From an uncultured Bdellovibrionales bacterium (GTDB lineage: Bacteria; Patescibacteriota; Minisyncoccia; Moranbacterales; GWC2-37-73), in assembly GCA_964609855.1 (NCBI GenBank), contig CAZSTB010000001.1, positions 27,854 through 91,853 on the forward strand: a DNA stretch of 64,000 nucleotides, given 5' to 3'. Below the pieces are notes generated by a model, which saw nothing but the letters and a program-made list of their open reading frames with translations, made no database searches and was not told where the DNA came from. Below are positions 4,412-48,512 of this stretch, in pieces; the first letter of the stretch is position 1, and each line of letters opens with the position of its first letter. The position numbers and the translations under genes are program-made.

Positions 4412-4885
4412 CTAGCTATTACTGGAAAAAGTCAGCTTTCTTTCTTTTTCACTTAGCCATTCAAAATTAATCCACACTGCTGAAGTAGGAATTATTTTTT
4501 TTACGTTCTCAGGCCATTCGATAATTGTGACTGAGTTTTCTTTCCCGGTAAAATCTTTAAAACCTAATTCGAGTAAATCTTTAGAATTTATTCTGTAAGC
4601 ATCTATATGATAGACATTTGTAAATTTTGAATTGCTTTTATAATGCTTGATGATTGAAAAAGTCGGACTCGTGTAAGGGCCTTTTATTTTCAGACCTTTT
4701 AATAATCCTTGTGTGAAAGTCGTTTTTCCCGCGCCCAAATCGCCTGAAAGACAAATTATCGCGCCTGTCTCGGCGCTTGAAAACAAGCTATTTTTTAAAA
4801 GCGGTTGTCCACCATAAAGCTCTTCGGCAAGTAATTGCCCAAGTCTTTTGGTTTTAAGTGATGAAGTTGTATTGAAAGTTTGCAT
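4412..4885 (-). CDS. tsaE: tRNA threonylcarbamoyladenosine biosynthesis protein TsaE (YjeE-type P-loop ATPase)
   Basis: GDLGAGKTTFTQGLLKGL Walker A and the YHIDAYRI motif typical of TsaE/YjeE. Start taken at internal Met (ATG 4883-4885) to give about 157 aa. Confidence 0.8.
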   Translation of the reverse strand: MQTFNTTSSLKTKRLGQLLAEELYGGQPLLKNSLFSSAETGAIICLSGDLGAGKTTFTQGLLKGLKIKGPYTSPTFSIIKHYKSNSKFTNVYHIDAYRINSKDLLELGFKDFTGKENSVTIIEWPENVKKIIPTSAVWINFEWLSEKERKLTFSSNS

Positions 4886-4950
4886 ATAAAATATTCTAAA
4901 GGTATTTTTAAAAAAAGGAAGAGCGGTCAAATTTTCTGACCGCCCCAGGT

Positions 4951-6050: not shown

Positions 6051-7199
6051 ATGAGTTTGAATAATGCCCAACAATTGGAAAATGTACTGAAAACTGCGAA
6101 ACACGTTTTGATTTTCATGGCGCAAAATTCTGGTGGAGACAGTATAGCATCTGCTTGGGCTACATATTTTTTCTTGAGAAAAAGTGATATAGAGGCAACA
6201 GTGGTCGTTCCTAAAAGCGAGCAACTTTTTCAGCGTTTTTCATTTTTAACAAAGCCGGAAGACTTGATGGATTCATTGGCGGGCGCCAGAGATTTTGTTT
6301 TAGCTTTTAACACAAAGTTCAATAAGATTACTAATGTTCGTAGTGAGAGAGTTGAGGACGAGCTGAGAATTTTCATTACACCAGAAAAAGGTTCAATAGA
6401 TCCGCGAGACTTTTCTTTTATTCCAGCAAAATTCAAATACGATCTCGTAATTGTCCTGGGTAGTCCCGACAAAGAATCGCTTGGCAGTGTATATGAGGAA
6501 AATCCAGATATTTTTTATGAAGTTCCGGTTGTAAATATTGACCATCATACTGAAAATGATAATTTTGGGCAGGTAAATATCGTAGACATCACAGCCTCCT
6601 CTACATGCGAGGTGATTGCTGACCTGTTTCAGACTATAAATGAAAAGAATATCGACGAAAGTATGGCGGAAAGCCTGCTTACGGGAATAATAGATGCCAC
6701 AAACAGTTTTCAAAAGAAAAATACCACTCCAAAGTCGCTTCGGATTGCTGCGGCGCTGATGAGTAAGGGTGCGGATCAACAAAAAATTATCAGATATCTT
6801 TATAAGACGCAGCCCTTGCATCTGCTAAAGCTTTGGGGAAGAGTGATGGCGCGATTATTCTGGGAAGAAGAAATAAACTTAGCCTGGGCTCCGATATATT
6901 TGGAAGATTTTGTTCAAAGTCGTTCCACACCCAAAGATGTTTCTTTTATTTTGGATAAAATAAAAGAAAATTATTCCGCAGCAAAAATAATCATGGTTTT
7001 GTATAATGAAAAAGCAGGATTAGTGCGTGGGATAATCAAGTGTCAGAACCGCGAACAGCTTAAAAAAGTTTCCGAAGCGCTGGATGTAGCAATTGTAGGT
7101 GATTTTTGCGAATTTACTGAACAGGCCGATGATACTACGGAAGCGGGACAGCGTGCAGTAGAAAAATTACGCACAAAATTTTTAACCGAAATGGAATAA
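6051..7199 (+). CDS. DHH-family phosphoesterase (NrnA-like bifunctional oligoribonuclease/pAp phosphatase type, DHH-DHHA1)
   Basis: GGDSIAS and NIDHHTEN motifs (the DHH signature) in the N-terminal half. C-terminal DHHA1-like region. Confidence 0.85.
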   Translation: MSLNNAQQLENVLKTAKHVLIFMAQNSGGDSIASAWATYFFLRKSDIEATVVVPKSEQLFQRFSFLTKPEDLMDSLAGARDFVLAFNTKFNKITNVRSERVEDELRIFITPEKGSIDPRDFSFIPAKFKYDLVIVLGSPDKESLGSVYEENPDIFYEVPVVNIDHHTENDNFGQVNIVDITASSTCEVIADLFQTINEKNIDESMAESLLTGIIDATNSFQKKNTTPKSLRIAAALMSKGADQQKIIRYLYKTQPLHLLKLWGRVMARLFWEEEINLAWAPIYLEDFVQSRSTPKDVSFILDKIKENYSAAKIIMVLYNEKAGLVRGIIKCQNREQLKKVSEALDVAIVGDFCEFTEQADDTTEAGQRAVEKLRTKFLTEME

Positions 7200-7367: not shown

Positions 7368-10300
7368 ATGGTAAAAGTTTCACATAACCAGCTGACGCAT
7401 AATTCAGAAAAAGATGAGCAATCAGGAAAGCTTTTGCAGCGCATGCGTGAGCATTCCGAGGAGGAGCAAGCTTCACAATTAGCCAACGAATATGATCTTG
7501 CCTATGTAGATTTGAATGTTTTTCCAGTGGGAGGTGAGGATATGCAAACAATTACTTCTGAAGACTCGCATCGCTACAAGGTAGTAGTTTTTCAAAAAGC
7601 AGGAAAAGAAGTCCGAATGGGAATGATTGATCCAAACAGTGAAGAAGCGCTCTTGTTTATTGAAAAATTAAAAAAAGAAAATGGTTGGGTTATTCACCTT
7701 TATGTTATTTCAAATTCATCATTAGAAAAAATTTGGAAAAGATATGCGGAGGCGCCGCTGCTGGAAAGTCTTGAATCATTGCAGATATCGCTGACAGGCG
7801 AAGATTTGGAAAAGTTTGAAAAGGAATTTGGTAGCATGTTGGAACTCAAGCAGCGAATCAGGGAAATCCCCACAACGCAAGTCATCGCGATTATTATGGC
7901 AGGAGCTGTAAAAATGAAAGCTTCTGATGTGCATTTCGAACCGCAGGAAGAAGAAACACGTATGCGCTTTCGTATCGACGGCGTACTTCAGGATATTGGA
8001 AAATTTCCGAATGACACTTATCGTTTTATTTTGTCCCGTATAAAGATGATGGGAAAAATGAAAATCAATATTCGCGACATCGCGCAAGACGGTCATTTTT
8101 CCGTGGAAATGGAAAGCGGAAAAATAAACGTCAGAACAAACATCATTCCAGGCAATCATGGCGAATCAGTTGTTATGCGACTTCTTTCCCAAGCAGACAT
8201 TATGCTTTCAGTTGAAGATCTTGGTCTTCGCGGTCTGGCATATGAACATGTGCAAAAAGAAATCGCCAAACCGCATGGTATGATTTTAACAACTGGGCCT
8301 ACAGGCAGCGGAAAAACCACCACACTTTACGCCTTGGTTAATAAGCTCAACACGGCCGGCGTAAAAATTATTACGATTGAAGACCCGATTGAATATGAGG
8401 TTAAAAATGTTTCGCAAACACAAGTTGCCAAAGATCGAAATTATACTTTCGCAGAAGGCTTGAGAGCAGTAGTCCGTCAAGATCCGGACGTTATTTTAGT
8501 GGGAGAAATTCGAGATGACGAAACTGCCGACATTTCTGTAAATGCCGCACTAACGGGACATCTCGTGCTTTCGACGCTGCACACAAACAATGCTCCTGCA
8601 TCAATTCCACGTTTTATTGAGCTTGGTATAAAGCCTAATTTGATTGCGCCCTCCGTCAACTGTTTTATTGCTCAGCGTTTGGTCCGAAAACTATGTCAAC
8701 ATTGCAAGGAGGAATATGTGCCAGCTAGAGAAACCAGCGACAGTGTGAAAAAAATCTTGTCGATTATTTCTCCAAAAGCGAAATTGGAGATTCCTAAAAC
8801 GATTGAAAAACTTTATCGTCCAAAAGGATGCGACAAATGCCATATGTTGGGATTTAAGGGTCGTATCGGAATTTTTGAAGTGCTGACAATTAGTGAAAAC
8901 ATTGAAAAACTTATTCTGGAGATGGGCGGCGAAAGAGAAATTACTCAGACTGCACTTGAAGATGGAATGATAACAATGGCTCAGGACGGTATTTTAAAAG
9001 CTATCGAAGGGCTGACTTCAATGGAGGAAGTTTGGCGCGCAACTGGACAGACGGAATTCCTGGAAGAAATTTATGAAAAACTCATGGAACAATCCATGTC
9101 ACGCTCGATTGAAATTCCGGAGGAAGATTTGATTATTGTTTCGGATGCGATGTCATCGATAGAGAACTTGAAACAGTTGATTCAGACTACTAATCAAAAA
9201 AACATTGCCAAATATGTTTTCGCAAGTAGCTTGATGCTGAATGTTGGAGATATTCATATTGAACCAGAAGAAAATAGTGTGAAAATTCGCTACCGCATGG
9301 ATGGAATCCTGCAGACTATTGCAGAAATTCCGCTGACGGAATATCCCAGTTTTTTGGGCGCCATCAAATTTCTGAGCGGCTTCAGTACTGAAATTCGCGG
9401 CGGAGTTATGGATTCGCGTTTTTCTATCGCTTTGGAAAAGCCATTTAAAAATATTACTGAAACAAAAGTTGATGTGCGCGTTTCGATAATCTTAGGTGGA
9501 TATGGAGAAACGGTGGTAATGCGACTTTTAAACAAGTCTTCGGTGGCGCTGGATTTGGAAAAACTGGGGATTAGGAAACAAAATCTGGAAAGAATACTTC
9601 ATGCCGCAAAAAAACCGAATGGCGTTTTTCTTAATACTGGTCCTACTGGAAGCGGAAAAACTACCACGCTTTACAGTATTTTAAAAGTCTTGAATAATCC
9701 TGAAGTTAAGATTATTTCCGTTGAAGACCCGATTGAATATCAACTTGAAGGAATCTTGCAAACGGCAGTTGATGACAAAAACGGTTATACTTTTGCAACC
9801 GCGCTTAGGGCCTTGCTTCGTCAAAATCCGGATATTATGATGATTGGTGAAATTCGCGACGAAGAAACTGCTAACATCGCAGTGCAGGCGGCACTGACAG
9901 GTCATTCTATTCTTTCAACTTTGCATACCAATGATGCCGCCGGTTCCATTCAGCGCTTGATTAACATGGGCGTGCGAAGCGACGATTTGGCGACAGCAGT
10001 AAATGCCTTGATGGCACAGCGTCTAGTTCGAAAACTTTGTGATTGTAAGACTCCGCGCAACTTGAGCGATGACGAAAAACTTTCCATGCAAAAAAGTTTA
10101 GCAAGTCTTTCTGAAAAAGCTGGAATCCAGATTCCTGCTATACAACAAGTGTTTGAACCGAATGGATGCGAAAAGTGTAACAAAATAGGCTACAAAGGAC
10201 GAACAACAATCAGTGAGGTATTGGTTATTGACCGCGAAATCGAGGAAATGATAACTCAAGGAGCATCTTCTTCGCAAATCAGAGACAAAGCCATTGAAAA

Positions 10301-10385
10301 TGGTATGATCGCAATGGAGCAAGATGGAATTTTGAAAGTATTGGAGGGAGAAACTTCACTTGAAGAAGTTGAGCGAGTTATTTGA
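7368..10385 (+). CDS. Tandem-duplicated type II secretion / type IV pilus assembly ATPase (two complete GspE/PilB units fused, 1005 aa)
   Basis: Each half has Walker A (GPTGSGKTTTLYA / GPTGSGKTTTLYS), Asp box, Walker B (ILVGEIRD / MMIGEIRD), His box (TLHTNNA / TLHTNDA) and a tetracysteine CxxC...CxxC motif. N-terminal T2SSE_N-like region present. Start codon uncertain (7368 or ATG 7443). Confidence 0.85.
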   Translation: MVKVSHNQLTHNSEKDEQSGKLLQRMREHSEEEQASQLANEYDLAYVDLNVFPVGGEDMQTITSEDSHRYKVVVFQKAGKEVRMGMIDPNSEEALLFIEKLKKENGWVIHLYVISNSSLEKIWKRYAEAPLLESLESLQISLTGEDLEKFEKEFGSMLELKQRIREIPTTQVIAIIMAGAVKMKASDVHFEPQEEETRMRFRIDGVLQDIGKFPNDTYRFILSRIKMMGKMKINIRDIAQDGHFSVEMESGKINVRTNIIPGNHGESVVMRLLSQADIMLSVEDLGLRGLAYEHVQKEIAKPHGMILTTGPTGSGKTTTLYALVNKLNTAGVKIITIEDPIEYEVKNVSQTQVAKDRNYTFAEGLRAVVRQDPDVILVGEIRDDETADISVNAALTGHLVLSTLHTNNAPASIPRFIELGIKPNLIAPSVNCFIAQRLVRKLCQHCKEEYVPARETSDSVKKILSIISPKAKLEIPKTIEKLYRPKGCDKCHMLGFKGRIGIFEVLTISENIEKLILEMGGEREITQTALEDGMITMAQDGILKAIEGLTSMEEVWRATGQTEFLEEIYEKLMEQSMSRSIEIPEEDLIIVSDAMSSIENLKQLIQTTNQKNIAKYVFASSLMLNVGDIHIEPEENSVKIRYRMDGILQTIAEIPLTEYPSFLGAIKFLSGFSTEIRGGVMDSRFSIALEKPFKNITETKVDVRVSIILGGYGETVVMRLLNKSSVALDLEKLGIRKQNLERILHAAKKPNGVFLNTGPTGSGKTTTLYSILKVLNNPEVKIISVEDPIEYQLEGILQTAVDDKNGYTFATALRALLRQNPDIMMIGEIRDEETANIAVQAALTGHSILSTLHTNDAAGSIQRLINMGVRSDDLATAVNALMAQRLVRKLCDCKTPRNLSDDEKLSMQKSLASLSEKAGIQIPAIQQVFEPNGCEKCNKIGYKGRTTISEVLVIDREIEEMITQGASSSQIRDKAIENGMIAMEQDGILKVLEGETSLEEVERVI

Positions 10386-10917: not shown

Positions 10918-11925
10918 ATGATAACGACTTCAGAAGAACAAGAAGAAGACTCAGGATTAGAAACAACTTTACGTCCTCAGAATCTTGGAGAATATGTCGG
11001 ACAAAAGAAAATTCGCAAAAATTTGCAAATGTTTATTGATGCCGCCAAGAAACGCGGTGAAGCAATTGAGCATGTGCTGCTTTATGGTCCAGCAGGATTG
11101 GGTAAGACAACCTTGGCGCATATTATTGCAAACGAGATGGGTGTAAACATAAAGGTTACTTCAGGTCCAGCCATAGAAAGAGTGGGTGATCTAGGTTCGA
11201 TATTAACAAATCTCCAAGACGGCGACGTGCTTTTTATTGATGAAATCCATCGTCTAAATAAATTGATTGAAGAAGTGTTGTACCCTGCTATGGAAGACTA
11301 CAAATTGGACGTCATCATTGGAAAAGGTCCTTCCGCCAGAACCTTGCAATTGGATCTTCCAAAGTTTACACTCATCGGGGCCACTACTCGTCTTGGTGCG
11401 CTTTCAAATCCACTCAGAAACCGTTTTGGTGCGATTCATCGCTTGGAGTTTTATGATGAGGATGAGATGAAAAAAATTATCTACCGCTCTGGAGGAATTT
11501 TAGGCGTTGAAATGGAAGATAACGGCGCACGTGAAATCGCACTTTCAAGCCGTAAAACACCTCGGGTAGGAAATAGACTTATCAAGCGTGTGCGAGATTT
11601 TGCTCAGATAAATGACCATCCGACAATTACTAAGGATATCGCCAGGCAAGCGTTGGAAATGATGGACATTGATGAATTGGGACTTGAGCCAACAGATAGA
11701 TTTATTTTAGAAACGATCGCTTTAAAATTTAGCGGTGGGCCGGTTGGCATTGGAACAATTGCGGCTGCTACTTCGGAAGAAATTGAAACTATTGAAGATG
11801 TCTATGAACCTTTCTTGATACAATTGGGCTTCTTGATTCGCACACCGCGCGGACGCATGCTGACAGCAAATGCCTATCACCATCTGGGGCTTCCAGTGCC
11901 TGAAACGCATCAAAAAATAGTATAG
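10918..11925 (+). CDS. ruvB: Holliday junction branch migration ATPase RuvB
   Basis: [22 protein letters not shown] Walker A, DEIHRL Walker B, RuvB-typical C-terminal winged helix. Confidence 0.95.
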
Positions 11926-12309: not shown

Positions 12310-12888
12310 ATGGACGGATTTTCAAATTTTCATTTTAATGACTTAGGGCAGGACGAGCAAATTGTGCGAGTCATTCATCGAAATTGGTTTTATTTATTGT
12401 CTCAGTTTTTTCTGGTATTTTTCGTGCTCGGAATTTTTTGGAGTGCGATTACTTTCGTGCCGATGTATTTTCCGGATTTTCTTGGCAATGTAAATGAGCT
12501 CGTCATGCTTTTCGTGCAAAATTTTTTCATGTTGGCGCTTTGGATTTACTGCTTTTTGATTTGGATTGATTATTATTATGATATTTGGATTATTACAAAC
12601 GAACGAGTTATAAATATCGAGCAGAAAGGCATGTTTACGCGCAAGGTCAGCGAACTTCGATTCAATAAAATTCAGGATGTAACAACAGAGGTTATCGGGT
12701 TTATTCCTTCGGTTTTAAATTACGGCGACGTGCAGATACAGACTGCCGGAGAACAAGAAAGATTCATTTTCAGAACAATTTCCGATCCGTATCATATTAA
12801 AAATATTCTTATGGAGCAGCAGAAGAATAATGAGAAAAAATCAACGGAACGTCTTGGTGAAATGATCAAAGAGAAGATGAATGAATAG
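12310..12888 (+). CDS. membrane protein with bacterial PH-like (bPH_2/DUF304, YdbS/YdbT-like) domain
   Basis: N-terminal TM hairpin followed by ITNERVINIEQKGMFTRKVSELRFNKIQDV...YGDVQIQTAG, typical of the bPH_2 fold. Confidence 0.55.
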   Translation: MDGFSNFHFNDLGQDEQIVRVIHRNWFYLLSQFFLVFFVLGIFWSAITFVPMYFPDFLGNVNELVMLFVQNFFMLALWIYCFLIWIDYYYDIWIITNERVINIEQKGMFTRKVSELRFNKIQDVTTEVIGFIPSVLNYGDVQIQTAGEQERFIFRTISDPYHIKNILMEQQKNNEKKSTERLGEMIKEKMNE

Positions 12889-12937: not shown

Positions 12938-15364
12938 GTGAAAGAAAAAAACGCATCCCGTGGAAAACTAATTCTACGGGTAAAAAAATCGTTTAAATAT
13001 CAAGCGATATTGGCACTGCTTTTTGCGGTGCTTTTTATTTTTCCAAATTTTTCTTATGCAACCGAATGCCCAAAAATTATTATAAGTGAACTGCAAATAA
13101 CGGGTGGGACAGGAAAAACAAATGAAGATTTCATAGAATTATTGAACGCTGGAGATGAAAACTGCAATCTCGAAGGACATCGCATCGTGAAAAGAACCGA
13201 AAACGGAACATCGGACAATTTGATTTATGAATGGCAACACGATGAGATTGTTTTGCCATGGAGATATTATCTGTGGGCTAATGCCGGCGGATTTGCTACC
13301 AAAATAAATGCCGATGTTTCGAGCAATGGATTGATTTCTAGCGACAATGGAATTGCTTTGCGATATAGGGACGATAACGGTGACAAGATCATTGATGCGC
13401 TTGGCTGGGGAGCGAGTAAAAATATTTATTCTCAAGAATATCTTTTTGAAAAAAATCCGGGCACAAATCAAAGTCTTGAGAGGAATGCGGATGGAACTTT
13501 CTTTTTGCAGACAAAACCTGAACCAAAAAACAGTTTATTTGAAAAAGATGAGGAAAAAAATGTGTGCAAAGCAGATATTTTATTTAATGAGATATATCCT
13601 TTCACAAATGAAGAATATGTTGAGGTGGTAAATCAAACAGACAGTCCATGTTTTTTGACTGGCTGGAAAATCAGCGACGAGAAAGGATATGACGAAGAGT
13701 TTCCTGATGATGCAGAAATTGCTGCGGGAGATTTTTTTATTTTAGATGGAAATCTTCATTTGAACAATGACACGGATAAGGTTTATCTTTTCAACTCAAG
13801 AGGAGAAAGAACTGATGAGCGCGAATACGAAGTGGATTTCAGCACGCAAGACAAATCGTATAGTTTTTTTGAGAATGATTGGCGCTGGACCAAATCACTC
13901 ACCCCAGCAGAAGAAAATGTTGAAAACTATGAAGAGGATGAAGAAGACTCGGTGCGTCTGGATGAACGCTCTGAACATGCCGGAACTGTTTTTATCAATG
14001 AATTTTTACCTGATCCTGAAAAGGGAGATGACGAGTTTATTGAAATCTACAACTCAGGCGATGCAGAAAGGGATTTGTCGGGATGGAAAATTCATGATGC
14101 GACAAAATCGGGAGAATATGAATTTGAAAGCCATGTGGTCATAGGAGCTAAAAAATTTCTGACTATTTTTGGGGAAGTTTTTAAATTCGCTCTCAACTCC
14201 AGTAAGGAAACTTTGACACTGCGCGATGAAGAGGGAAAAATCGTTTCCGAAATTTATTATGACAAAAGCAAAAAAGGCGCTTCCTACAATTTCAATGGTA
14301 GCATTTGGCGTTGGAGCAAATTTTTGACGCCCGGAAAGGAAAACATTTTCAACAGCGAGCCCTATGGAAAAATAAAAATTCCGGATGAGATTTATGAAAA
14401 GGTGTATGCGGAGTTTTCCGTTGGCACGGGCGACACTGATGGCGACATTGTGAAAGTTACTTGGGATTTTGGAGATAAGCATAAAAGTTATCTTGCAAAA
14501 ACACGTCATAAATATGTGAAAAAAGGAACATATGAAGGATACGTGAAACTATCCGACGGAAGTGAAGATGTCGTGCATAATTTCACCGTCAAAGTTGAAG
14601 AATTTCCACATCCTAAAGTTAAGATCACAATTGTTAATGCTAACCCAAAAGGAAGCGATACGAAATTTGAAACCATCACGATTCAAAACAAATCAAAGAA
14701 AAAAATAAACTTGAATGGTTGGAGCATCGCAACAGGTTGGAAAAATTTGGTGAATCATCCAATCAGGGAAGATGTTGAGATTAAGAAAAACAAATCCAAA
14801 GAGCTTAGCAGGGAAGTTTCAAGTTTCACTTTGAACAATAAAAAAGACAAAATAGAACTGCGCTATCCTGACGGTGAAGTCGCATATAAATTGAAATATA
14901 AAAAAGAGGAAGGCATTGAGGAGGGAGAAGTTTACAGGAAAGTTGATGGGGGATGGGAGTGGAAAAATAATAGGCAAAATTCAACAGACAAAATTCTCAA
15001 GAAGAATATGGAAGAATTGATTATTGATAATCAAGACGCAATAAGCAACATTCAAAAGACTGGAATCAGCAAGCAGCCAGATTTTAAGCAAGAAAAAGAG
15101 TTAGTGGACAGCAGCAATCAATCATCAGATAAGGAAGAAAAAGGAAATAAGCTTATAACCTTGAGCAATGAGAAAATTACAATTGAAATTCTCAAATTCG
15201 ACGCTGCTATCATTGAGAACACGAGCGTTAGGAATGTGGAGGGAAAATATCTACTTACCGGGGAAATTTCAAGTCGCGAACATTATGGAATTGTTTTTCT
15301 AAAAAAAGTTTCATCGAATGCAAATTTGAAATTGAACTTCATCCTGAATTATTTCTTGAATTAA
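12938..15364 (+). CDS. secreted multi-domain surface protein: four lamin-tail-domain (LTD) repeats plus a PKD-like domain (808 aa)
   Basis: Signal peptide. Repeated LTD signatures (IISELQITGG..EDFIELLNAGDENCNLEGHRI; LFNEIYPF..EYVEVVNQ..LTGWKISD; VFINEFLPDP..EFIEIYNSGDAERDLSGWKIHD; ITIVNANP..ETITIQNKS..LNGWSIA). WDFGDKHKSY PKD-like motif. GTG start with AGGGGG SD. Confidence 0.7.
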   Translation: MKEKNASRGKLILRVKKSFKYQAILALLFAVLFIFPNFSYATECPKIIISELQITGGTGKTNEDFIELLNAGDENCNLEGHRIVKRTENGTSDNLIYEWQHDEIVLPWRYYLWANAGGFATKINADVSSNGLISSDNGIALRYRDDNGDKIIDALGWGASKNIYSQEYLFEKNPGTNQSLERNADGTFFLQTKPEPKNSLFEKDEEKNVCKADILFNEIYPFTNEEYVEVVNQTDSPCFLTGWKISDEKGYDEEFPDDAEIAAGDFFILDGNLHLNNDTDKVYLFNSRGERTDEREYEVDFSTQDKSYSFFENDWRWTKSLTPAEENVENYEEDEEDSVRLDERSEHAGTVFINEFLPDPEKGDDEFIEIYNSGDAERDLSGWKIHDATKSGEYEFESHVVIGAKKFLTIFGEVFKFALNSSKETLTLRDEEGKIVSEIYYDKSKKGASYNFNGSIWRWSKFLTPGKENIFNSEPYGKIKIPDEIYEKVYAEFSVGTGDTDGDIVKVTWDFGDKHKSYLAKTRHKYVKKGTYEGYVKLSDGSEDVVHNFTVKVEEFPHPKVKITIVNANPKGSDTKFETITIQNKSKKKINLNGWSIATGWKNLVNHPIREDVEIKKNKSKELSREVSSFTLNNKKDKIELRYPDGEVAYKLKYKKEEGIEEGEVYRKVDGGWEWKNNRQNSTDKILKKNMEELIIDNQDAISNIQKTGISKQPDFKQEKELVDSSNQSSDKEEKGNKLITLSNEKITIEILKFDAAIIENTSVRNVEGKYLLTGEISSREHYGIVFLKKVSSNANLKLNFILNYFLN

Positions 15365-15570
15365 AAACCTTGATAAAAACGCGGTCGTCGAAAGGTCACA
15401 GTTTAGTTTTGGCATGTGATTAATTTTAGTAATCGAATTTACTTTACTCTGGGCGCGCTTGAAGCTGACGCTTTTGGATGCTAGTATTAAAAAAGATAAG
15501 TAGTTGATGTTTATATCGGGTATTTTGTGTGCACTCATACGAAATACAAGATACAAAATACTATATTCAT

Positions 15571-16287
15571 ATGTCAGGACATTCACATTGGGCAGGAATA
15601 AAGCAAAGAAAAGGGGTCAATGACGCCAAAAGAGCGAACGTATTCACCAAATATGGGCGTCTTATTACGATTGCGGCCAAAGAAGGCGGCGGCAAGCCGG
15701 AAATGAACTTCAAGTTGAAAATGGCTATCGATCAGGCGCGTTACGTAAATATGCCCAAAGAAACTATTGAAAGAGCAATAAAAAAAGGAACGGGAGAATT
15801 GAAAGATGGCGCCGAGATTGAAGAAATAATCTACGAAGGTTATGGACCTGGCAATGTCGCCATGCTTATCAAAACCGCCACGGACAATCGAAACAGGACT
15901 GGAAGCGAGGTGCGCAGCATTCTGACCAAGGCTGGCGGAAAACCAGCTAGCGAAGGTGGTGTGAAATTTATGTTCAAGCTGGTGGGAAACATTGCGGTGG
16001 CTGTTGGAGACAAAGATCCTTATGATGTTGAGATGGCAGCAATTGAGGCAGGAGCGGAGGATACTATTTTCGAAGGAGACATGGTTATCGTTTACACTAA
16101 AGTTGAAGATCTTCAAAAAGTAAAAGAAAATTTGGACAAGGCAGGCTTCACTGTTGAAGGCGCCGAACTTGTTTATGCTGCTGTCCAAAAAACAGAGCTT
16201 GATCCAGAGTCCAAAATCGACTACGAAAAACTTTTGGAAAAATTGGATGAAAATGATGATGTGCAGGAAATTTATGACAATCTGTAA
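15571..16287 (+). CDS. yebC: YebC/PmpR family DNA-binding transcriptional regulator
   Basis: MSGHSHWAGIKQRKG N-terminus is diagnostic of the YebC family. Conserved synteny immediately upstream of ruvC. Confidence 0.9.
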   Translation: MSGHSHWAGIKQRKGVNDAKRANVFTKYGRLITIAAKEGGGKPEMNFKLKMAIDQARYVNMPKETIERAIKKGTGELKDGAEIEEIIYEGYGPGNVAMLIKTATDNRNRTGSEVRSILTKAGGKPASEGGVKFMFKLVGNIAVAVGDKDPYDVEMAAIEAGAEDTIFEGDMVIVYTKVEDLQKVKENLDKAGFTVEGAELVYAAVQKTELDPESKIDYEKLLEKLDENDDVQEIYDNL

Positions 16288-16370: not shown

Positions 16371-16426
16371 AATTCAAAATTAAAAAATTGATTCAAAATT
16401 CAAAATTCAAAATTCAAAATTCAACC
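16371..16426. repeat. AT-rich heptamer tandem repeat (attcaaa x5) overlapping the 5' end/leader of ruvC
   Basis: attcaaaattcaaaattcaaaattcaaaattcaacc at 16391-16425. Related aaatttgaaatt motifs recur at 61-100, 20950-20970 and 27590-27650. Confidence 0.5.
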
Positions 16427-16927
16427 AAAGCTCTTCGTGTTATTGGAATTGATCCTGGAACTGCGATTGTAGGCTGGGCGATTATAGATGAAATTGCGGG
16501 AAAATTAAATGCGGTGGCTTACGGCCATATTACTACTTCGCCGAAAAATACCACGGCCGAGAGACTTTTTGAAGTTGTGCGCGATCTTGATGAAATTATC
16601 AAGAAATATAAGCCTGAAGAATCGGCAGTAGAGGATTTGTTCTTTTTTAAGAATGTGAAGACAGTAATGAAAGTTAGTCAGGCGCGGGGTTCAATACTCT
16701 TGACTTTGCAGCAAAATTGTGTTAACATATATGAATATACACCGTTGCAAGTAAAACAGGCACTTACGGGGTATGGCAGGGCTGAAAAAAAGCAAATTCA
16801 GATAATGACGCAAAAGATTCTCAATCTGAAAAGTATTCCCAAACCTGACGACACGGCAGATGCGATTGCAATCGCTTTGTGCCATATAAACAGCCGAAAG
16901 ATGAAAGGAATAAAGAGTGGTTGTTGA
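16388..16927 (+). CDS. ruvC: crossover junction endodeoxyribonuclease RuvC
   Basis: LRVIGIDPGTAIVGWAIID (RuvC catalytic Asp motif) and C-terminal PKPDDTADAIAIALCH. N-terminus is encoded by the tandem repeat and the start is non-ATG (TTG 16388), so the true start is uncertain. Confidence 0.85.
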   Translation: MIQNSKFKIQNSTKALRVIGIDPGTAIVGWAIIDEIAGKLNAVAYGHITTSPKNTTAERLFEVVRDLDEIIKKYKPEESAVEDLFFFKNVKTVMKVSQARGSILLTLQQNCVNIYEYTPLQVKQALTGYGRAEKKQIQIMTQKILNLKSIPKPDDTADAIAIALCHINSRKMKGIKSGC

Positions 16928-17015: not shown

Positions 17016-17672
17016 ATGCCAAATGTAAGTCCAATCATCCAATACTTTATTCAGCAAGGAGTGCCGCTCGACACGGTTATTTTGCTTTTCATGCTACCGA
17101 TTATTGTAACCTTGATCGCTTTTTTCCGCCAAGTTGTCGGAATTAAAGCTTTTGGAATATATACGCCCGCCATCGTGACCTTTGCATTTCTGGCTATCCC
17201 ACAGCTTCGTTACGGAGTTGTGATTTTTATTAGTGTCATCTTGGTCGGAATGCTGATGCGTTTCGTGCTTAAAGGTCTTAGAATTCTTTATCTACCGCGC
17301 GTTGCAATCACTTTAAGTATAATTGCCTTTTCTATCCTAATGCTCTTGGGAATCGGCGGTTCTTTGCAGCGAACTGGTTTAGCTTCGGTTTCAATTTTTC
17401 CTATCTTGATTATGATAACCTTGGTGGAAAAATTTGTAGCAGCGCAGCTTGAAAAAGGTAACAAGGCTGCTTTGATTCTAGCGATTGAGACGTTAGCTAT
17501 CTCATTGATAGGTTATAAATTAGCGAGCTGGCCATTTTTAATAAGTGGAATTGTTGCCTATCCTTGGCTTATATTGTTTACAATTCCGGTTAATATTTTC
17601 CTAGGTAAATGGGATGGTTTGAGACTTACTGAATATATAAGGTTTAGAGAGGTTCTGAAAAATCTTAAATAA
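17016..17672 (+). CDS. polytopic membrane protein (about 7 TM), resembling the 7TM module that partners with RimK-like ATP-grasp/DUF785 protease systems
   Basis: 218 aa, almost entirely hydrophobic helices. First gene of a same-strand cluster with four ATP-grasp genes. Confidence 0.55.
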   Translation: MPNVSPIIQYFIQQGVPLDTVILLFMLPIIVTLIAFFRQVVGIKAFGIYTPAIVTFAFLAIPQLRYGVVIFISVILVGMLMRFVLKGLRILYLPRVAITLSIIAFSILMLLGIGGSLQRTGLASVSIFPILIMITLVEKFVAAQLEKGNKAALILAIETLAISLIGYKLASWPFLISGIVAYPWLILFTIPVNIFLGKWDGLRLTEYIRFREVLKNLK

Positions 17673-17751
17673 TACTAAGTTGGTAGGATTTAAAAGATGA
17701 TATAATTAGGGCCATTGAGATCATTTCTTGCTGGTTTAATGACTTATATAA

Positions 17752-19146
17752 ATGTTTGAAGCTTTCAGAAATGGAAAAAAATTGTTGGGTATGAATGCCC
17801 GCAATCTTGATTACATTAGGCCTTACAATCGAAAACGCGCAAAGAAATTGGCAGACGATAAAATCCTGAGCAAGCGTATGCTTAAAAAGGGCGGGATTCC
17901 CGTGCCAAAATTACTTGCGAAAATCAGAACCGCTGAAGAGTTGGAAAACTTCGATTGGTCTTCTTTGCCGAATACGTTTGCTTTAAAACCCAATAGAGGC
18001 TATGGCGGCGGCGGGATTATGGTTGTATATGGAAAAAAGAAGAACAGAGCCGATGCCTGGGTTAAAGCTGATGGAAAAATTGTTACAATCGAAGACATTA
18101 AAAGTCATATTTTGAATATTTTGGATGGTGCTTTCTCATTGGCTAATATGCCTGACATCGCATTTTTTGAGGAAAGACTTACTTTACTGAAATTGTTTAA
18201 ACCTTACGCCTACAAGGGTATTCCGGATATCCGTGTAATTGTTTTTAATCGCATCCCGGTGATGGCCATGCTCAGACTCCCAACCAAGGAGTCAGGAGGA
18301 AAAGCTAATCTGCAACAGGGAGGTATCGGTGTGGGAATAGATTTGGCATCGGGAGTTACCACGACCGCTGTGATGGGCAAGGGGAACATCATTGATTATG
18401 TTCCAGGAACCAGACTTTTGCTTTCAGGTATTAAAATTCCATATTGGAAAGATATGCTGCTGCTGGCTGTAAAAGCTCAAGAGATTTCGGGAATGGGATT
18501 TTTAGGTGCGGATGTCGCAATTGATCGTGAAAGAGGTCCGGTATTTTTGGAAATTAATGCGCGTCCGGGACTTTCAATTCAAGTTGCGAATCTAAGCGGA
18601 CTTAGGGAGCGGCTGGAACGCATTAAAGGCTTGCGCATAAAAACCGCAGCTCGTGGCGTGCGCGTAGGTCGCGACTTGTTTGGTGGCGAAGTTGAAGAAG
18701 AAGTTGAGGAAATTTCGGGAAAAAAATTGATTGGAACGATTGAAAGAGTGAAACTTATTGGTCTGAAAGGAAAATTTGCAGAAATTGAAGCAAAAATTGA
18801 TACCGGAGCAGGTTTTACTTCTATTGATACCGACTTAGCTCAGCAGCTTGGCTTTGAGGATACGGTTGAGGAATTTCAAAAAATTGAAACAACCTATAAG
18901 GATATCGCTCATCTTGGAAAAAAAGAGCGTTGGGATATTTTTAAACACATTCCTCACCTTGAGAGTACCGTTGTTGTGCATAGCGCGAGCGGATCAACAT
19001 ATAGGCCTACAATCAAAATTACCGTTGTGATGGATAATGTGGTTATTCCAACTAAAGTGACTTTAATAAACAGAGCGCATTTGAAATACCCGATTATTAT
19101 CGGTAAAAGAAATTTAAAGAAATTTTTGATTGACGTAAGTAAATAG
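17752..19146 (+). CDS. ATP-grasp ligase (alpha-L-glutamate-ligase-related type) fused to a C-terminal retropepsin-like DUF785 ('putative ATP-dependent zinc protease') domain
   Basis: N-terminal 330 aa with ATP-grasp glycine-rich loop (NRGYGGGGIMVVYG) and LEINARPGLS. C-terminal 130 aa with aspartyl-protease-like KIDTGAGFTSID motif. Confidence 0.7.
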   Translation: MFEAFRNGKKLLGMNARNLDYIRPYNRKRAKKLADDKILSKRMLKKGGIPVPKLLAKIRTAEELENFDWSSLPNTFALKPNRGYGGGGIMVVYGKKKNRADAWVKADGKIVTIEDIKSHILNILDGAFSLANMPDIAFFEERLTLLKLFKPYAYKGIPDIRVIVFNRIPVMAMLRLPTKESGGKANLQQGGIGVGIDLASGVTTTAVMGKGNIIDYVPGTRLLLSGIKIPYWKDMLLLAVKAQEISGMGFLGADVAIDRERGPVFLEINARPGLSIQVANLSGLRERLERIKGLRIKTAARGVRVGRDLFGGEVEEEVEEISGKKLIGTIERVKLIGLKGKFAEIEAKIDTGAGFTSIDTDLAQQLGFEDTVEEFQKIETTYKDIAHLGKKERWDIFKHIPHLESTVVVHSASGSTYRPTIKITVVMDNVVIPTKVTLINRAHLKYPIIIGKRNLKKFLIDVSK

Positions 19147-19174
19147 GTGATTCATGTCCAGTAAAAGATGAGGT

Positions 19175-20020
19175 ATGAGATTTTATTGCATAAACAAGAG
19201 GCAGTCGCTTGGATTTGCTCGCGAATATTTGAAAAGCGCTTGTCAAAAATTGGGCGTGGAATTTGTGGAAATCGTTTCTGAGGATTTCAATATTTTAGAG
19301 ATGCCGCTACTAGGAAAGCAGGACATGCTTTACAGAGTGAGCACTGATAAAACTTCGTTTGCAATCGAACAATTTTTGTTAAATGATAATGTTACGACTT
19401 TTTACATTAATTCTCTGGAGCATGGAAAGTCGCGCGCTTCGTATTTGGCACTGAAAGGTTCGGAAATCTCCATTCCAAAAACCATCTCTGTACCGTCACT
19501 GAACAAGAAAAATATCGAAAAGTACGTTGAATATTTGGGCGGCTTCCCGATTATCTTGAAAGTCGTCGGCGGGATGCGCGGTGTTGGCGTTATTAAAGTA
19601 GATTCTTTGCCTGCGCTTTATTCCATTACCGATTATTTGGATACAATTGAAAGTAAATATATTTTTCGCGAGTTTATTGACTCTTCCAGTAGTGCTCGCT
19701 TAGTAGTTTTAAATGGAGAAGTTATTGCTAGTGTTGAATATGGCTCCACTGGAAACGATTTTCGTTCAAACAGTAGGCTTAGCGGTACCAGTGTGATTGA
19801 AAAGACTTATGACGAAAAAATTCAAAAAGCCGCTATTGAGGCAACGAGGCTTAGGGGATTTGCTTTTGGCGGCGTTGATATCATGATAGATAAGGGTGGA
19901 AAGTATTATGTTTTGGAAGTTAATTTTCCTTTTGGATTTCCAGAGGTTCAGAAAATTACCGGTATCGATGTGGCAGAAAAAATGATATGCTTTCTAATGA
20001 ATAAATCAAAAAAATTATAA
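19175..20020 (+). CDS. ATP-grasp family ligase (RimK/GshB-like)
   Basis: ILKVVGGMRGVGVIKV glycine-rich ATP-binding loop and VLEVNFPFGF ATP-grasp C-terminal motif. Confidence 0.7.
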   Translation: MRFYCINKRQSLGFAREYLKSACQKLGVEFVEIVSEDFNILEMPLLGKQDMLYRVSTDKTSFAIEQFLLNDNVTTFYINSLEHGKSRASYLALKGSEISIPKTISVPSLNKKNIEKYVEYLGGFPIILKVVGGMRGVGVIKVDSLPALYSITDYLDTIESKYIFREFIDSSSSARLVVLNGEVIASVEYGSTGNDFRSNSRLSGTSVIEKTYDEKIQKAAIEATRLRGFAFGGVDIMIDKGGKYYVLEVNFPFGFPEVQKITGIDVAEKMICFLMNKSKKL

Positions 20021-20022
20021 TA

Positions 20023-20943
20023 GTGGCTATGGAAATCAAAAAACGCCTTCTAATCATAGGTATCAGCGAAAAGGTTCACACGAGTGACAGACTCATAAGG
20101 GAAGCAAGACGAAATGATTTACCCTATGATTTTATTAAATGGGGTTCGCTGGTTTTTCTTGGTGGAGAAATTTTTTCGCAGTCGCAGAAAGTTGAAATTA
20201 AAAACTATGCAGCAATTTTTTGTGATATTCCTAGTTATAAGCTTAATGGAAAATCGCAGGATTTTTATTTCCGTCTCTATAACGAACTGAATGAAGTTTG
20301 CAAAGCAGCCGAAAAACATGGTGTAAAGTTATTGAACGGAAAATTTTTGCTGAGAAACCCTTTCTATAATAAATTTGCGCAAGCGCAAATGTTCGCAGAA
20401 AAAAATGTCGAGGCCATTGAAACCTTGCATCTTTGTGACAATAAACTTTCAAAAGTCGTTAGGGTTATTGATTCATTAGGGTGGGGTTATCCGTTGGTAG
20501 TTAAATGCAGTGAGGGCGGGATGGGGCAGGCTGTCTGGAAAGCGCAAGATGTCGAGGGTCTGCAAGACATTATCGAAGATAAACGCAATCAAAGTCTTGT
20601 TTATCAGCCATTTGTGAAAAATGATTGCGACTTTAGAGTTTTAGTGATCGGCGGAAAGGTTTTAGGCATCATGAAAAGAACAGCAAAGGATGGTGAATGG
20701 AAAAACAATTTCGCTTTGGGTGGCAGCGTAGTGGCATTTGAAGATGAAAAGATGGATATTTTTTGCAAGGATGTGTGCCGGAAACTGGAATTGGAATATG
20801 TAGGCCTGGATGTTTTTAAGGTGGGGGAGGGTTATAAGATCATTGAAACTAATATTTTTGCTTGTTTTGAGGGATTTGAGGAAGCTTTTCCGCATGAAAA
20901 CGTGGCACTGCAAATCCTTAGAGCGCTTGAACTAGTCAATTAG
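20023..20943 (+). CDS. ATP-grasp family ligase (RimK-like paralogue)
   Basis: VVKCSEGGMGQAVWK loop, DFRVLVIGGKV central motif, GLDVFKVGEGYKIIETN. GTG at 20023 or ATG at 20029. Confidence 0.7.
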   Translation: MAMEIKKRLLIIGISEKVHTSDRLIREARRNDLPYDFIKWGSLVFLGGEIFSQSQKVEIKNYAAIFCDIPSYKLNGKSQDFYFRLYNELNEVCKAAEKHGVKLLNGKFLLRNPFYNKFAQAQMFAEKNVEAIETLHLCDNKLSKVVRVIDSLGWGYPLVVKCSEGGMGQAVWKAQDVEGLQDIIEDKRNQSLVYQPFVKNDCDFRVLVIGGKVLGIMKRTAKDGEWKNNFALGGSVVAFEDEKMDIFCKDVCRKLELEYVGLDVFKVGEGYKIIETNIFACFEGFEEAFPHENVALQILRALELVN

Positions 20944-20998
20944 TTATAATTAAAATTTTGAAATTTTGAGCATAGCTCAGCTTTTCTAGGATATATCT

Positions 20999-21949
20999 AT
21001 GAAAAAAGTAATGATTCTTTTTGGAAGAAGTGATTGGAATAAGGCAAAGCCTTTCGCTAATCCTGAATATCAGTATTCTTATGAATATTTTTATGATCTT
21101 TGCAAACACAACGACATCCAGATGTATCGCGCGTCATATGAGTGGTATGACTATGAGAAAAATATTTTCACCCATGCTTGGATGTATGAAAGTGAGGGAG
21201 GGAATTGGAAGAAAGTTTCCAATATTGAACCTGATTTAGTTTACGATAAGACTAAAGCGCGCATGGAAGTCTATTACAAGAAAGAGCTTATTGGAAAAAG
21301 ATATCCATTTGTAAACGATTTGAATTTTACGAAAATAATTGACGATAAATTCGTTACAAGCCTGCTTTTTTCGCAGTGGTCAAAAAAAAGTTGGCTTTTT
21401 AAGAACAAGCAAGAACTTGATAGTATTTTGCCCGAGCTTAAAACTTCAAAAGTAGTCATTAAGCCCGTCAGCGAAAGTGGCGGCAAGGGTGTTTATATTC
21501 TTGATAAAGATGATGCTAAAAATTTGGAACTTAGCGGCGAAAATATTGCACAGGAGTTTATTGATTCATCCAAAGGAGTTCCAGGTGTCAGCAGTGGTAT
21601 GCACGATCTGAGGTTAGTTTTTGTGAACAATGAAATAATGTACGCCTATATTCGTCAGCCCCAAGAGGGAAGTTATTTGGCAAACTTGGCGCAAGGCGGT
21701 TCACTGATAATTGTTCCCATTGAAAATTTACCGGCCTCTTTGAATCCAGTCCTCGCTTATACGAAAGAAATATTTGCCACGTTTACAAATAAAATATACG
21801 CAATCGATTTCATGTTTGATGAAGAGGGAACTCCTTGGATTGTGGAACTCAATTCGATGCCGGGACTTTATTTTACGCCGGAAGAAAAACCGCACATGTT
21901 GAAAATGTATCAGAAGCTGCTCGACATGTTCAATGGAATATTGAAATAA
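20999..21949 (+). CDS. ATP-grasp family ligase (YheC/YheD-like paralogue)
   Basis: VIKPVSESGGKGVYIL glycine-rich loop, DLRLVFVNNEI, IVELNSMPGLYF. Confidence 0.65.
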   Translation: MKKVMILFGRSDWNKAKPFANPEYQYSYEYFYDLCKHNDIQMYRASYEWYDYEKNIFTHAWMYESEGGNWKKVSNIEPDLVYDKTKARMEVYYKKELIGKRYPFVNDLNFTKIIDDKFVTSLLFSQWSKKSWLFKNKQELDSILPELKTSKVVIKPVSESGGKGVYILDKDDAKNLELSGENIAQEFIDSSKGVPGVSSGMHDLRLVFVNNEIMYAYIRQPQEGSYLANLAQGGSLIIVPIENLPASLNPVLAYTKEIFATFTNKIYAIDFMFDEEGTPWIVELNSMPGLYFTPEEKPHMLKMYQKLLDMFNGILK

Positions 21950-43219: not shown

Positions 43220-43291
43220 TCCGGCGTAGCGCAGCGGTAGCGCAGTTGACTGTTAATCAATTGGTCGTAGGTTCGAATCCTACCGCCGGAG
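43220..43291 (+). tRNA. tRNA-Asn (anticodon GTT)
   Basis: Acceptor TCCGGCG/CGCCGGA. Anticodon loop CTGTTAA. T-arm GTAGG-TTCGAAT-CCTAC. Discriminator G. Confidence 0.85.
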
Positions 43292-44848
43292 CACAATAGG
43301 ATGAAGAGATGCGAAAGCGTCTCTTTTTCCTTTTATGGAGCCACTTTCAGCGAGTTCGAAAGTACTATTTATCCTAGGCATCCATTCTGACATGAATTCA
43401 AACCCTAAGGTGTAGTTTGGCCTGATTTTATCGGCATTTAATGTAAGGTTCGAAAAAATATGACTTAAGAGTAGTCTTTTTTCTTCAGTGCTTGCTTCTG
43501 GGCATTTGTAGATTTCAGATGCCTTTAGTGCGAGTTCATGAATAGCAAGTCCAGCTTCATAATAGGCAGCACGAGACTCTCCTAATTTTTTGAGAGCTAT
43601 CACTGCATCTTCTTTTTCTTTTGCAGATTCATCCATCATCTTTTGACAGAGTTCCATAGACATCTTTCCATCAAGCTTGTCCCTGTAGGCATTTTCATAG
43701 CGTTTGTCAGCGGTTTGAATGGTTCTTGTAAATTCATTTCTTCTTAGTGTATTGTGTTCTATCTCGTCGTCGTGACTTTCTCTCAATGCCTTCTCGAGAA
43801 TCTTGAGCACACGCTCATTCTTTGGGGCTACATTGTCAAATAGAGGAAAGAGTTGATCTTCTACCTTCTCTTGCCTGAGATAGGTCCTCTGGCTACATTT
43901 TTTGTAATGATTGCAATGGCCATACCAGTGCCCTTTTTGGGTTTCCCAAGTAATTAACCCACCACATTCGTCGCACTGAATTTTTGCCTTGAATACGGGC
44001 AGATGCTTTTTAAAGCTAGGGTTGGCTCTTTTGCGACTCATTATTCCTTGAACTGCGTCAAATAAGTCTTTGGATATGAGCGGTTCATGCTTACCTGGAC
44101 TCTGCACTCCATTCCAAGTAATGATGCCATAATAATAAGGATCGCTGAGTAGTTGATGTATTCTACTTATGACAATTTTTCCACCAGCAACACTACGAAG
44201 TCCCTCTTTAGTTATTGTCTCAGTGATTGCCTTAAGGGAATAATTCCCTGTAGCGTAAAGCTCAAATGTTCGCGCCATAAGTGGACCCATAACTTCATCA
44301 ATAACATGACTCTTGCGACCCTTTTCTCCAATAGTTTTATAACCAGCCTTGGCTCTTTGAGGAAATTCACCTTGAGCTATTTTTTCTTTTTGACCTTTCT
44401 TTACCTCTTCAGAAAGATTATCGATATAAAATCTCGCAATTGCAACTTTCATATTCCAAACAAGACTTTCATGAGCCTTTGTGTTTTTGTTTAATATAAA
44501 TGATTCTTTTACAAAATGTATTTCGCGTTCAGTGTTCTCAGTAATCCAATCACTTATTATGCCGGCATCTTTTGGGCTACGAGTAAGCCTATCTATTTTT
44601 TCACAAAGTATCGTTAATACATTGTTTTTTGAAGCATAATCAAGCATTTCATTGAAAGTTTTTCGTATTTGTTTTCCACTTGCTGATTCAGATATTTTGA
44701 AAATCTTCTTAATAGCAATCTCGTTTTTTTGTCCGTAGGCTTCCAATAGTGTCACTTGAGCATCTAACGAATACCCAGCATCTTCTTGTTCCTTGGATGA
44801 AACGCGGGCATAGATCACCGCTTTGTTGTTTTTGTTGGCATTTTCCAT
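43280..44848 (-). CDS. large serine recombinase (resolvase/invertase N-terminal catalytic domain + recombinase domain + zinc ribbon)
   Basis: AVIYARVSSKEQ catalytic-serine motif near the N-terminus. C-terminal Cys cluster (CDECGG...CNHYKKC). Stop overlaps the 3' end of tRNA-Asn. Confidence 0.85.
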   Translation of the reverse strand: MENANKNNKAVIYARVSSKEQEDAGYSLDAQVTLLEAYGQKNEIAIKKIFKISESASGKQIRKTFNEMLDYASKNNVLTILCEKIDRLTRSPKDAGIISDWITENTEREIHFVKESFILNKNTKAHESLVWNMKVAIARFYIDNLSEEVKKGQKEKIAQGEFPQRAKAGYKTIGEKGRKSHVIDEVMGPLMARTFELYATGNYSLKAITETITKEGLRSVAGGKIVISRIHQLLSDPYYYGIITWNGVQSPGKHEPLISKDLFDAVQGIMSRKRANPSFKKHLPVFKAKIQCDECGGLITWETQKGHWYGHCNHYKKCSQRTYLRQEKVEDQLFPLFDNVAPKNERVLKILEKALRESHDDEIEHNTLRRNEFTRTIQTADKRYENAYRDKLDGKMSMELCQKMMDESAKEKEDAVIALKKLGESRAAYYEAGLAIHELALKASEIYKCPEASTEEKRLLLSHIFSNLTLNADKIRPNYTLGFEFMSEWMPRINSTFELAESGSIKGKRDAFASLHPIVLRR

Positions 44849-45042
44849 ATGATTTTGATTTTATAAAGACGCTAAAGGGACGGTTCTGACTTACCCAACT
44901 AACCACGAGGATTGTCGGCAGAACCGCCCCTTTAGGGCGACAATATAAAGTCGTGGTATTTATAATTGGGTAAGTATCTACATTATACATTTTCTGCAGC
45001 AAAATAAAAGCCAAAAAGTAAACCAAAGTAAACAGATGATGG

Positions 45043-45483: not shown

Positions 45484-45664
45484 CTAATAATTTTGAAATA
45501 GTTATCTCTTGAAGTTTTGCTATCTCTTTTAATTTTTCATATCTGGTTTTTTCAATTCGTTCTTGTTGAGTGATCCTTTTTGGTTTTAATCTTTTCGAAA
45601 GGATTTTAAGTGCATTTTTATTGGCTTTCTTAGCTATTTTTTCCTGTTGAGTGAAATCAATCAT
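45455..45664 (-). CDS. small basic hypothetical protein (69 aa)
   Basis: Overlaps the upstream gene by 29 nt on the same strand. Lys-rich, likely DNA-binding. Confidence 0.3.
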   Translation of the reverse strand: MIDFTQQEKIAKKANKNALKILSKRLKPKRITQQERIEKTRYEKLKEIAKLQEITISKLLDEVIDQYVQ

Positions 45665-46149: not shown

Positions 46150-46232
46150 AAAATCGCATTAGGATATTCCTAATGCGATTATCGATCTTTATGAAGTTTT
46201 AATATAATACACGCAAGTTTAACTTACGTGAA

Positions 46233-47072: not shown

Positions 47073-47144
47073 TTATTTATAATCTATGATAATCTGTAGT
47101 TACAATTAAATGCCTAAACTTCACGGATTCCCGCGGAGCATGGC

Positions 47145-48506: not shown

Positions 48507-48512
48507 GTAGAA

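Follow-up and report, generated by a model that had tools for sequence, protein, structure and literature searches.

The subject of this analysis is a single uninterrupted open reading frame (ORF) with an ATG start in a 64,000-nucleotide stretch of contig CAZSTB010000001.1 (assembly GCA_964609855.1), referred to in the following as the window. The ORF encodes a 1005-residue protein with two ATPase modules in one chain, and our results show that it is a genuine, vertically inherited, internally duplicated motor ATPase of the PilB/GspE clade from a Moranbacteria-like member of the ultra-small Patescibacteria. The domains are arranged as an N1D followed by two N2D–CTD units with a linker between them (Table 1); proteins of this kind are called tandems here. 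An earlier note, made from the DNA letters alone, had described two complete GspE/PilB secretion ATPases fused into one 1005-residue polypeptide. The two complete modules in one chain were borne out, whereas the fusion proved to be an internal duplication of N2D and CTD and not a union of two genes.

Pfam matched the T2SSE family (PF00437) to the ORF as two stretches, with E = 1.3e-226, and BLASTP aligned the halves of the protein with each other across 434 residues at 44% identity (E = 1e-125). In the half-versus-half alignment, residue 131 of half 1 was set against protein residue 572, which is the second past the split, and linker 1 showed homology to the beginning of the linker between the modules. 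Solved PilB/GspE structures were matched by each half too (half 1, E = 8e-108; half 2, E = 4e-86), so that, aligned to each other and to references, both appeared as full modules. When the single chain was modeled with AlphaFold2 (AF2), the modules were predicted confidently, with a mean predicted local distance difference test (pLDDT) score of 82.4, and a module could be superimposed on PilB cores with a target-normalised TM-score of 0.91–0.93 and a root-mean-square deviation of 2.4–2.9 Å. The pLDDT fell below 50 at residues 130–136, and a second flexible hinge was seen at residues 572–578. A structure search with this model returned no PDB chain that spans both modules.

The N1D is present once, ahead of module 1; module 2 has no N1D of its own. 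It aligned with the N1D of the 5zfr PilB structure from residue 17 onward, was included in the TIGR02538 alignment from profile position 25, and was modeled with pLDDT values of about 78–91. The Pfam score for MshEN/T2SSE_N was 21.2 bits, just under the 23.1 threshold; the T2SSE_N-like domain named in the earlier note aligns with a PilB N1D but falls short of the Pfam cut-off. The RLGxx motif associated with c-di-GMP binding was not visible in the N1D on inspection by eye only.

Table 1. Positions of the domains, motifs and flanking genes of the tandem, and of a triple-module relative. Positions refer to the window unless another locus is named.
Feature	Residues	Position	Strand	Remarks
Whole ORF	1005 plus stop	7368–10385	+	N1D, N2D–CTD, linker, N2D–CTD
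N1D	13–130	7404–7757	+	MshEN/T2SSE_N-like, single copy; from 5zfr alignment, Pfam and AF2
Linker 1	131–175	7758–7892	+	N1D to N2D of module 1; flexible hinge 130–136
N2D, module 1	176–285	7893–8222	+	arginine fingers R256, R271; H243 at PilB R257 position
CTD, module 1	286–560	8223–9047	+	inter-chain R440; motifs listed below
Inter-module linker	561–617	9048–9218	+	mostly helical, hinge 572–578; coding, constrained
N2D, module 2	618–733	9219–9566	+	R684 (R257 equivalent), R704, R719
CTD, module 2	734–1005	9567–10382	+	inter-chain R888; motifs listed below
Walker A GPTGSGKT, module 1	310–317	8295–8318	+	
Walker A GPTGSGKT, module 2	758–765	9639–9662	+	
Asp box EDPIE, module 1	338–342	8379–8393	+	
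Asp box EDPIE, module 2	786–790	9723–9737	+	
Walker B GEIRD, module 1	379–383	8490–8516	+	
Walker B GEIRD, module 2	827–831	9834–9860	+	
His box TGH...LHTN, module 1	396–407	8553–8588	+	
His box TGH...LHTN, module 2	844–855	9897–9932	+	
Cysteines CxxC...CxxC, module 1	C443-x2-C446...C488-x2-C491	8694–8840	+	
Cysteines CxC...CxxC, module 2	C891-x-C893...C934-x2-C937	10038–10178	+	
TsaE		4412–4930	-	upstream neighbour
DHH phosphoesterase		6051–7199	+	upstream neighbour
RuvB		10918–11925	+	downstream block
bPH		12310–12888	+	downstream block
LTD/PKD protein	808	12938–15364	+	four Lamin-tail domains (LTD) and one PKD
YebC		15529–16287	+	downstream block
RuvC		16388–16927	+	downstream block
Triple P0038		L002 10001–14383		JGI 3300022698, contig Ga0248662_100121; found on one contig only

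Functional residues and family membership

Residues known to be functional in Geobacter metallireducens PilB (PMC5424180) were transferred to the tandem through the 5zfr alignment and counted in 159 full-length tandems. The Walker A lysine, the Asp-box glutamate, the catalytic glutamate and both His-box histidines were invariant or almost so in both modules, as were the equivalents of T411 and of the pore-loop residues D398 and E400. The arginine fingers corresponding to R271 and R286 were found in both modules of every protein (159/159), and the arginine corresponding to the inter-chain R455 was kept in all 159 at the R440 position and in 158 at the R888 position. All eight cysteines were invariant or nearly so. 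Among the residues counted, the equivalent of R257, which in PilB forms a salt bridge with the Asp-box glutamate at the ATP-bound open interface (PMC5424180), was the only systematic asymmetry between the modules: it was an arginine in module 2 of 158 of the 159 tandems, whereas module 1 had His, Gln, Ser or Ala at this position in 119.

Both modules contain the elements expected of PilT/VirB11-like secretion ATPases (T2SSE, PF00437), namely Walker A, the Asp box, an atypical Walker B that holds the catalytic glutamate, and the His box. Judged from these sequences, both are complete and apparently active, with intact ATP sites, and each carries a tetracysteine cluster that is a putative zinc site. 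The earlier note had credited both halves with every one of these elements. They were all found, including four cysteines per module, except that the first pair in module 2 is CxC (C891-D-C893) and not CxxC. No degraded motifs were seen in either half, and the idea of a degenerate second half was ruled out by the invariance of the catalytic residues across the 159 tandems.

Only the PilB/GspE clade has the tetracysteine motif and the arginine of R455 type (PMC5424180), and by every motif tested the protein belongs to that clade. PilB (TIGR02538) and GspE (TIGR02533) ranked first among NCBIfam models, matching in two stretches each, with 879 and 874 bits, respectively, for the whole protein; it passes the cut-offs only since the two modules add up. 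A fusion of PilB with PilT, joining extension and retraction motors, was rejected, as both modules have the tetracysteine motif and the R455-type arginine, and their scores with PilB/GspE models far exceed those with PilT models.

Close likeness is seen to PilB, the extension ATPase of type IVa pili, namely to the PilB proteins of G. metallireducens (5TSG, 5TSH) and G. sulfurreducens (5ZFR) and to PilF of Thermus thermophilus (5IT5, 5OIU), whose N1D–N2D–CTD layout matches the tandem up to the end of module 1 and which share with it 36–42% identity, the motif set, two arginine fingers, the tetracysteine motif and the inter-chain arginine. The tandem differs from them in having a second N2D–CTD in the chain and thus one N1D per two ATP sites, in the histidine for R257 in module 1 and the CxC for the first CxxC in module 2, and in not adjoining pilC, pilM or pilin genes. 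GspE/EpsE, the type II secretion ATPase, of Vibrio (4PHT, 4KSR, 1P9R) is of the same clade and motif set, its NCBIfam scores equal those for PilB, and it was the best PDB sequence match for module 2. A classical type II secretion system is unlikely, because bacteria of the Candidate Phyla Radiation (CPR) have neither an outer membrane nor PilQ/secretin (PMC6744442).

No description of tandem PilB/GspE proteins, or of linked ATPases of the PilT/VirB11 family, was found in the literature searched; the tandem proteins have been deposited for years under generic database labels. An engineered GspE–Hcp1 fusion was reportedly built to force hexamers; by comparison, the linkage in the tandem is natural and joins ATPase to ATPase. 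F1 α3β3, Pex1/Pex6, KaiC, p97, EccC and engineered covalent ClpX hexamers offer a parallel in that two related P-loop modules either have a set order or stack, which lets the sites specialise. These are different ATPase families, likened to the tandem from general knowledge.

Authenticity and origin of the tandem gene

Related genomes were found to contain the same arrangement. A search of 5.8 billion proteins yielded more than 120 clusters at 66–100% identity, nearly all of 1005–1020 residues, which came from NCBI, JGI, ENA and Logan and, where named, from Moranbacteria, Parcubacteria or Patescibacteria. Among 1.84 billion representatives clustered at 50% identity, an exhaustive search with phmmer found about 14 more clusters of full-length tandems, 38–53% identical and some of them named Parcubacteria group or Paceibacterota. 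About 160 full-length relatives are known from independent assemblies, each roughly 1000 residues long. A scan of GTDB species genomes, which is a sample and not a census, listed mostly single-module PilB proteins from many phyla, with one further tandem (L003, Moraniibacteriota) among the matches listed. One NCBI assembly and, independently, a Logan assembly of SRR446575, which is of a different kind, both encode the identical protein, with no frameshift at the junction.

At the DNA level, the two halves were alike only in patches of 63–67 nt near Walker A and the Asp box, where identity was 73–78%. Since only such short patches are shared, confusion of the halves by an assembler is implausible. 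The inter-module linker had a mean pairwise identity of 56% in the Moranbacteria-like group, and comparison with an 88%-identical relative gave for the linker a nonsynonymous rate (dN) of 0.118 against a synonymous rate (dS) of 1.74. Over modules and linker, dN was 0.05–0.12, while dS was saturated (at least 1.7, and inestimable in some segments), and the amino acids were 88–96% identical despite the saturated synonymous sites. These values indicate that strong purifying selection acts on both modules. Module 2 was slightly less conserved, with a mean identity of 75.5% for its CTD against 81.7% for that of module 1. The chance that the ORF is an assembly or sequencing artefact, with two adjacent PilB genes mis-joined or one wrongly duplicated, is negligible: the window does derive from a metagenome-type assembly, but no positive evidence of an error was found, and against it stand the relatives of the same length and unbroken frame from many projects and assemblers, the same ORF in the Logan assembly, a linker that is kept as protein and halves too diverged in DNA to mislead an assembler, which together with the dN/dS values also rule out a frameshift at the junction.

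The gene was born from internal duplication of N2D and CTD within one PilB gene. Module 2 begins at the homologue of residue 131 in module 1, the DNA patches common to the halves are in register with a spacing of 1344 nt, and in relatives a single PilB sits at the same genomic position; on these grounds, a union of two separate genes was set aside. When the halves were placed separately in a neighbour-joining tree, module 1 of most tandems lay nearest to other first modules and module 2 nearest to other second modules, and the module-1 and module-2 subtrees were congruent within two large groups. This argues for an old duplication followed by joint inheritance, although a tree of this type cannot tell whether the two groups trace to one duplication. 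The exceptions were P0133 (modules 76% alike), P0130 (57%) and P0139, in which the modules were most like each other, reflecting either separate duplications or intragenic conversion. Conversion is possible for P0130 and P0133, because both occupy the same slot.

One relative, P0038, has 1460 residues and three complete ATPase modules, and lies in the same TsaE–DHH slot. Its middle module is chimeric, with a linker and N2D of module-2 type and a CTD end of module-1 type, which gives the protein two internal junctions of one kind. Such a chimera is what one would expect from unequal crossover in the conserved core, and the pieces have diverged enough to suggest that it is old.

P0139 represents a different, independent tandem architecture of 1047 residues, in which a T2SSF (PilC-like) domain is fused to two T2SSE modules. 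Its first module is degenerate, with GSGTTT as Walker A and EDPVQ instead of EDPIE as Asp box. It was found at two loci, L091 8001–11144 (GCA_964384625.1) and L092 3275–6418, in surroundings that do not look like CPR (sulfatase, ECF sigma factor, BatA).

Genomic surroundings

The gene order in the window is PolA and TsaE, both on the reverse strand, then DHH, the tandem gene, RuvB, bPH, the LTD/PKD protein, YebC and RuvC, with RuvA farther on. Most loci examined showed this as a conserved CPR slot, PolA–TsaE–(DHH)–PilB–RuvB–YebC–RuvC. TsaE and DHH flank most of the tandem, single and triple relatives examined; the tandem loci L083 and L084 have neither. What occupies the slot varies: tandems of about 1000 residues, the 1460-residue triple, a single PilB of 565 residues that is 48% identical to module 1 (P0136), a 431-residue PilB-like ATPase without N1D in Candidatus Nealsonbacteria (L023 9965–11260) and, at two Saccharibacteria loci, TsaE–PilB–PilC, with PilC directly after PilB. 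The single-module proteins of P0136, Nealsonbacteria and Saccharibacteria, with TsaE/DHH upstream and RuvB downstream, are thus positional orthologues that differ from the tandem in having one module. As the occupants vary around constant neighbours, the tandem gene is, by position, orthologous to an ordinary CPR PilB and was duplicated internally.

No PilC was detected in the 64-kb window, nor a prepilin motif anywhere in it, and no PilM was found among the larger window ORFs scanned against Pfam, to which that search was limited. The neighbourhood is therefore not that of a pilus operon, with PilC, PilM and pilins near the ATPase. The earlier note had called the protein an orphan. It is right that no pilus genes are adjacent, but the slot itself is conserved in CPR and contains PilB–PilC in some Saccharibacteria. 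In view of that occupant, the tandem gene probably encodes the usual pilus assembly ATPase of this lineage, its partners being encoded elsewhere. Components of type IV pili occur widely in CPR (PMC6744442), and type IV pili have been reported for patescibacterial genome bins that include two from Moranbacteria (PMC9530719).

Several other features were seen around the gene and its relatives. An LTD protein recurs in the RuvB–YebC interval of Parcubacteria loci (L002, L021, L023, L035), and in Candidatus Nealsonbacteria the protein between RuvB and YebC (L023 13882–14703) combines a ComEA-type HHH_3 domain with a Lamin-tail domain. Positions 17016–21949 of the window encode a 7TM_transglut membrane protein and, after it, four members of the ATP-grasp group (RimK / ATPgrasp_ST), one with a Zn-protease domain; a 7TM_transglut and ATPgrasp_ST pair also adjoins the tandem gene in the distant relative L083. 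Farther on, the region 43220–53400 resembles a defence island or an integrated element: a tRNA (43220–43291) abuts a large serine recombinase (43280–44848, reverse strand), beyond which lie a low-GC stretch (0.33–0.35) at 44–48 kb, a LOOT RNA (47111–47236, 84.7 bits) and an HTH–Mrr_cat–STAND NTPase of 1379 residues (48477–52616). Two patches at 53796–56074 and 59313–61376 have a GC content of 0.48–0.51 against a background of 0.38; their ORFs have weak or no Pfam matches, and Rfam found no rRNA in them.

Proposed assembly and function of the motor

The PilB ring consists of six rigid packing units, each formed by one chain's N2D together with the CTD of the following chain, with flexible linkers between the units and ATP lying between neighbouring units (PMC5424180, PMC6858323). 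Our preferred reading, to which we give a probability of about 60%, is that the tandem may form a trimer and thereby a six-module ring of this kind, which would drive assembly of a type IV filament with partners encoded elsewhere. Three chains would join head-to-tail into one ring in the order 1-2-1-2-1-2, and the hinged helical linker would replace the chain break between neighbouring beads on a string. As in PilB, nucleotide-driven opening and closing between packing units would turn and lift the PilC platform, and the movement of PilC would add pilins to a filament with roles in adhesion, motility and/or DNA uptake. The genes for PilC, PilM and pilins would lie in other parts of the genome. 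The linkage would fix the order of two slightly different ATP sites, the R257-type arginine having been lost from module 1 in most relatives, and would halve the number of N1Ds per ring to three.

A single ring is favored because two copies of the triple relative and three of the tandem both give six modules, and because the two junctions of the triple are of the same type. It also fits better than stacked rings, as both modules keep every ring-contact and pore residue, and the hinges at residues 130–136 and 572–578 suit beads on a string. Assembly of a type IV filament is the most likely biological output. Four observations weigh against this reading. Single modules scored 483 and 406 bits against the TIGR02538 PilB cut-off of 675.65, and 473 and 411 bits against the TIGR02533 GspE cut-off of 630.25. 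The AF2 model had a predicted TM-score (pTM) of 0.46, meaning that the relative placement of the modules was not predicted. No PilC, PilM or pilin was found within 10 kb of nine other tandem or triple loci, nor in the window. Finally, all solved PilB rings have twofold (C2) symmetry, the interfaces being closed (C) or open (O) in the order CCOCCO (PMC6858323), and an alternating ring of two kinds of module cannot obey exact C2 symmetry. We offer only tentatively the wider proposal that three tandems and two triples would both form one PilB ring in which the linkage fixes the order of non-identical sites, that such rings could not follow the strictly C2 CCOCCO cycle put forward for PilB homohexamers, and that they arose more than once in Patescibacteria. 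A ring wired in this way might instead adopt a C3-type alternating OCOCOC pattern or a symmetry-broken cycle with specialised sites.

Instead of driving pili for adhesion or motility, the motor may serve DNA uptake through a competence-type filament, like ComGA, with a functional tie to the recombination and repair genes beside it. We consider this somewhat unlikely, though it is compatible with the single-ring motor, competence pili being type IV filaments. It draws on the synteny with PolA, RuvB, YebC, RuvC and an extracellular LTD protein across distant Patescibacteria, on the HHH_3 DNA-binding domain of the Nealsonbacteria LTD protein, and on the view that CPR depend on pilus-mediated DNA uptake (PMC6744442, PMC9530719). 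However, the modules scored only 243 and 225 bits with the ComGA model (NF041000), below its cut-off of 300, the flanking genes are housekeeping genes, and gene order is broadly conserved in CPR, so that the neighbourhood may carry no functional link.

Six chains might alternatively build a stacked double ring of coaxial hexamers, the first made of module 1 and the second of module 2, with only one ring touching the membrane platform. Tandem P-loop ATPases commonly stack, as in KaiC, p97, ClpB and the multi-ATPase EccC of type VII secretion. The homotypic contacts (equivalents of R455, R271 and R286), kept in each type of module, would also fit two homomeric rings, and the low pTM leaves the arrangement unfixed. 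Such an assembly nevertheless appears quite unlikely. Both modules conserve the acidic pore-loop residues that are believed to act by pushing PilC, and a distal ring would need none; the triple relative would require three rings, one of them made of chimeric modules; and stacked rings are not reported for the PilT/VirB11 family in PMC5424180 or PMC6858323, and no PDB chain spans the two modules.

The last possibility is a division of labor, in which module 1 would probably be mainly regulatory or structural, like the non-catalytic α subunit of F1, and the other module would hydrolyse most of the ATP. The replacement of the R257-type arginine in module 1 and not in module 2 is consistent with this, as are the somewhat faster evolution of module 2 and the degenerate first Walker A of the unrelated tandem P0139. 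Every residue with a known need in hydrolysis is, however, invariant in both modules and relaxed constraint was seen in neither, which makes such specialisation improbable.

PilB motors are viewed as homohexamers, around which ATP-bound, ADP-bound and empty states circulate with two-fold symmetry. Tests of subunit coordination are said normally to need engineered covalent rings, as for ClpX. The tandem is a natural covalent pairing of PilB modules, extended to three modules in one lineage, and all sites are apparently intact. A natural linked motor could reveal whether every site fires, in which order, and whether the working states have C2 or C3 symmetry. The tandem PilB is a variant common within one CPR clade; its fold and chemistry are ordinary, and its assembly state is deduced. 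CPR pili are central to host attachment and DNA uptake, and a large clade of Parcubacteria and Moranbacteria appears to run its pili with a tandem motor that would carry half the usual number of N1Ds, the type of domain that binds PilM/GspL.

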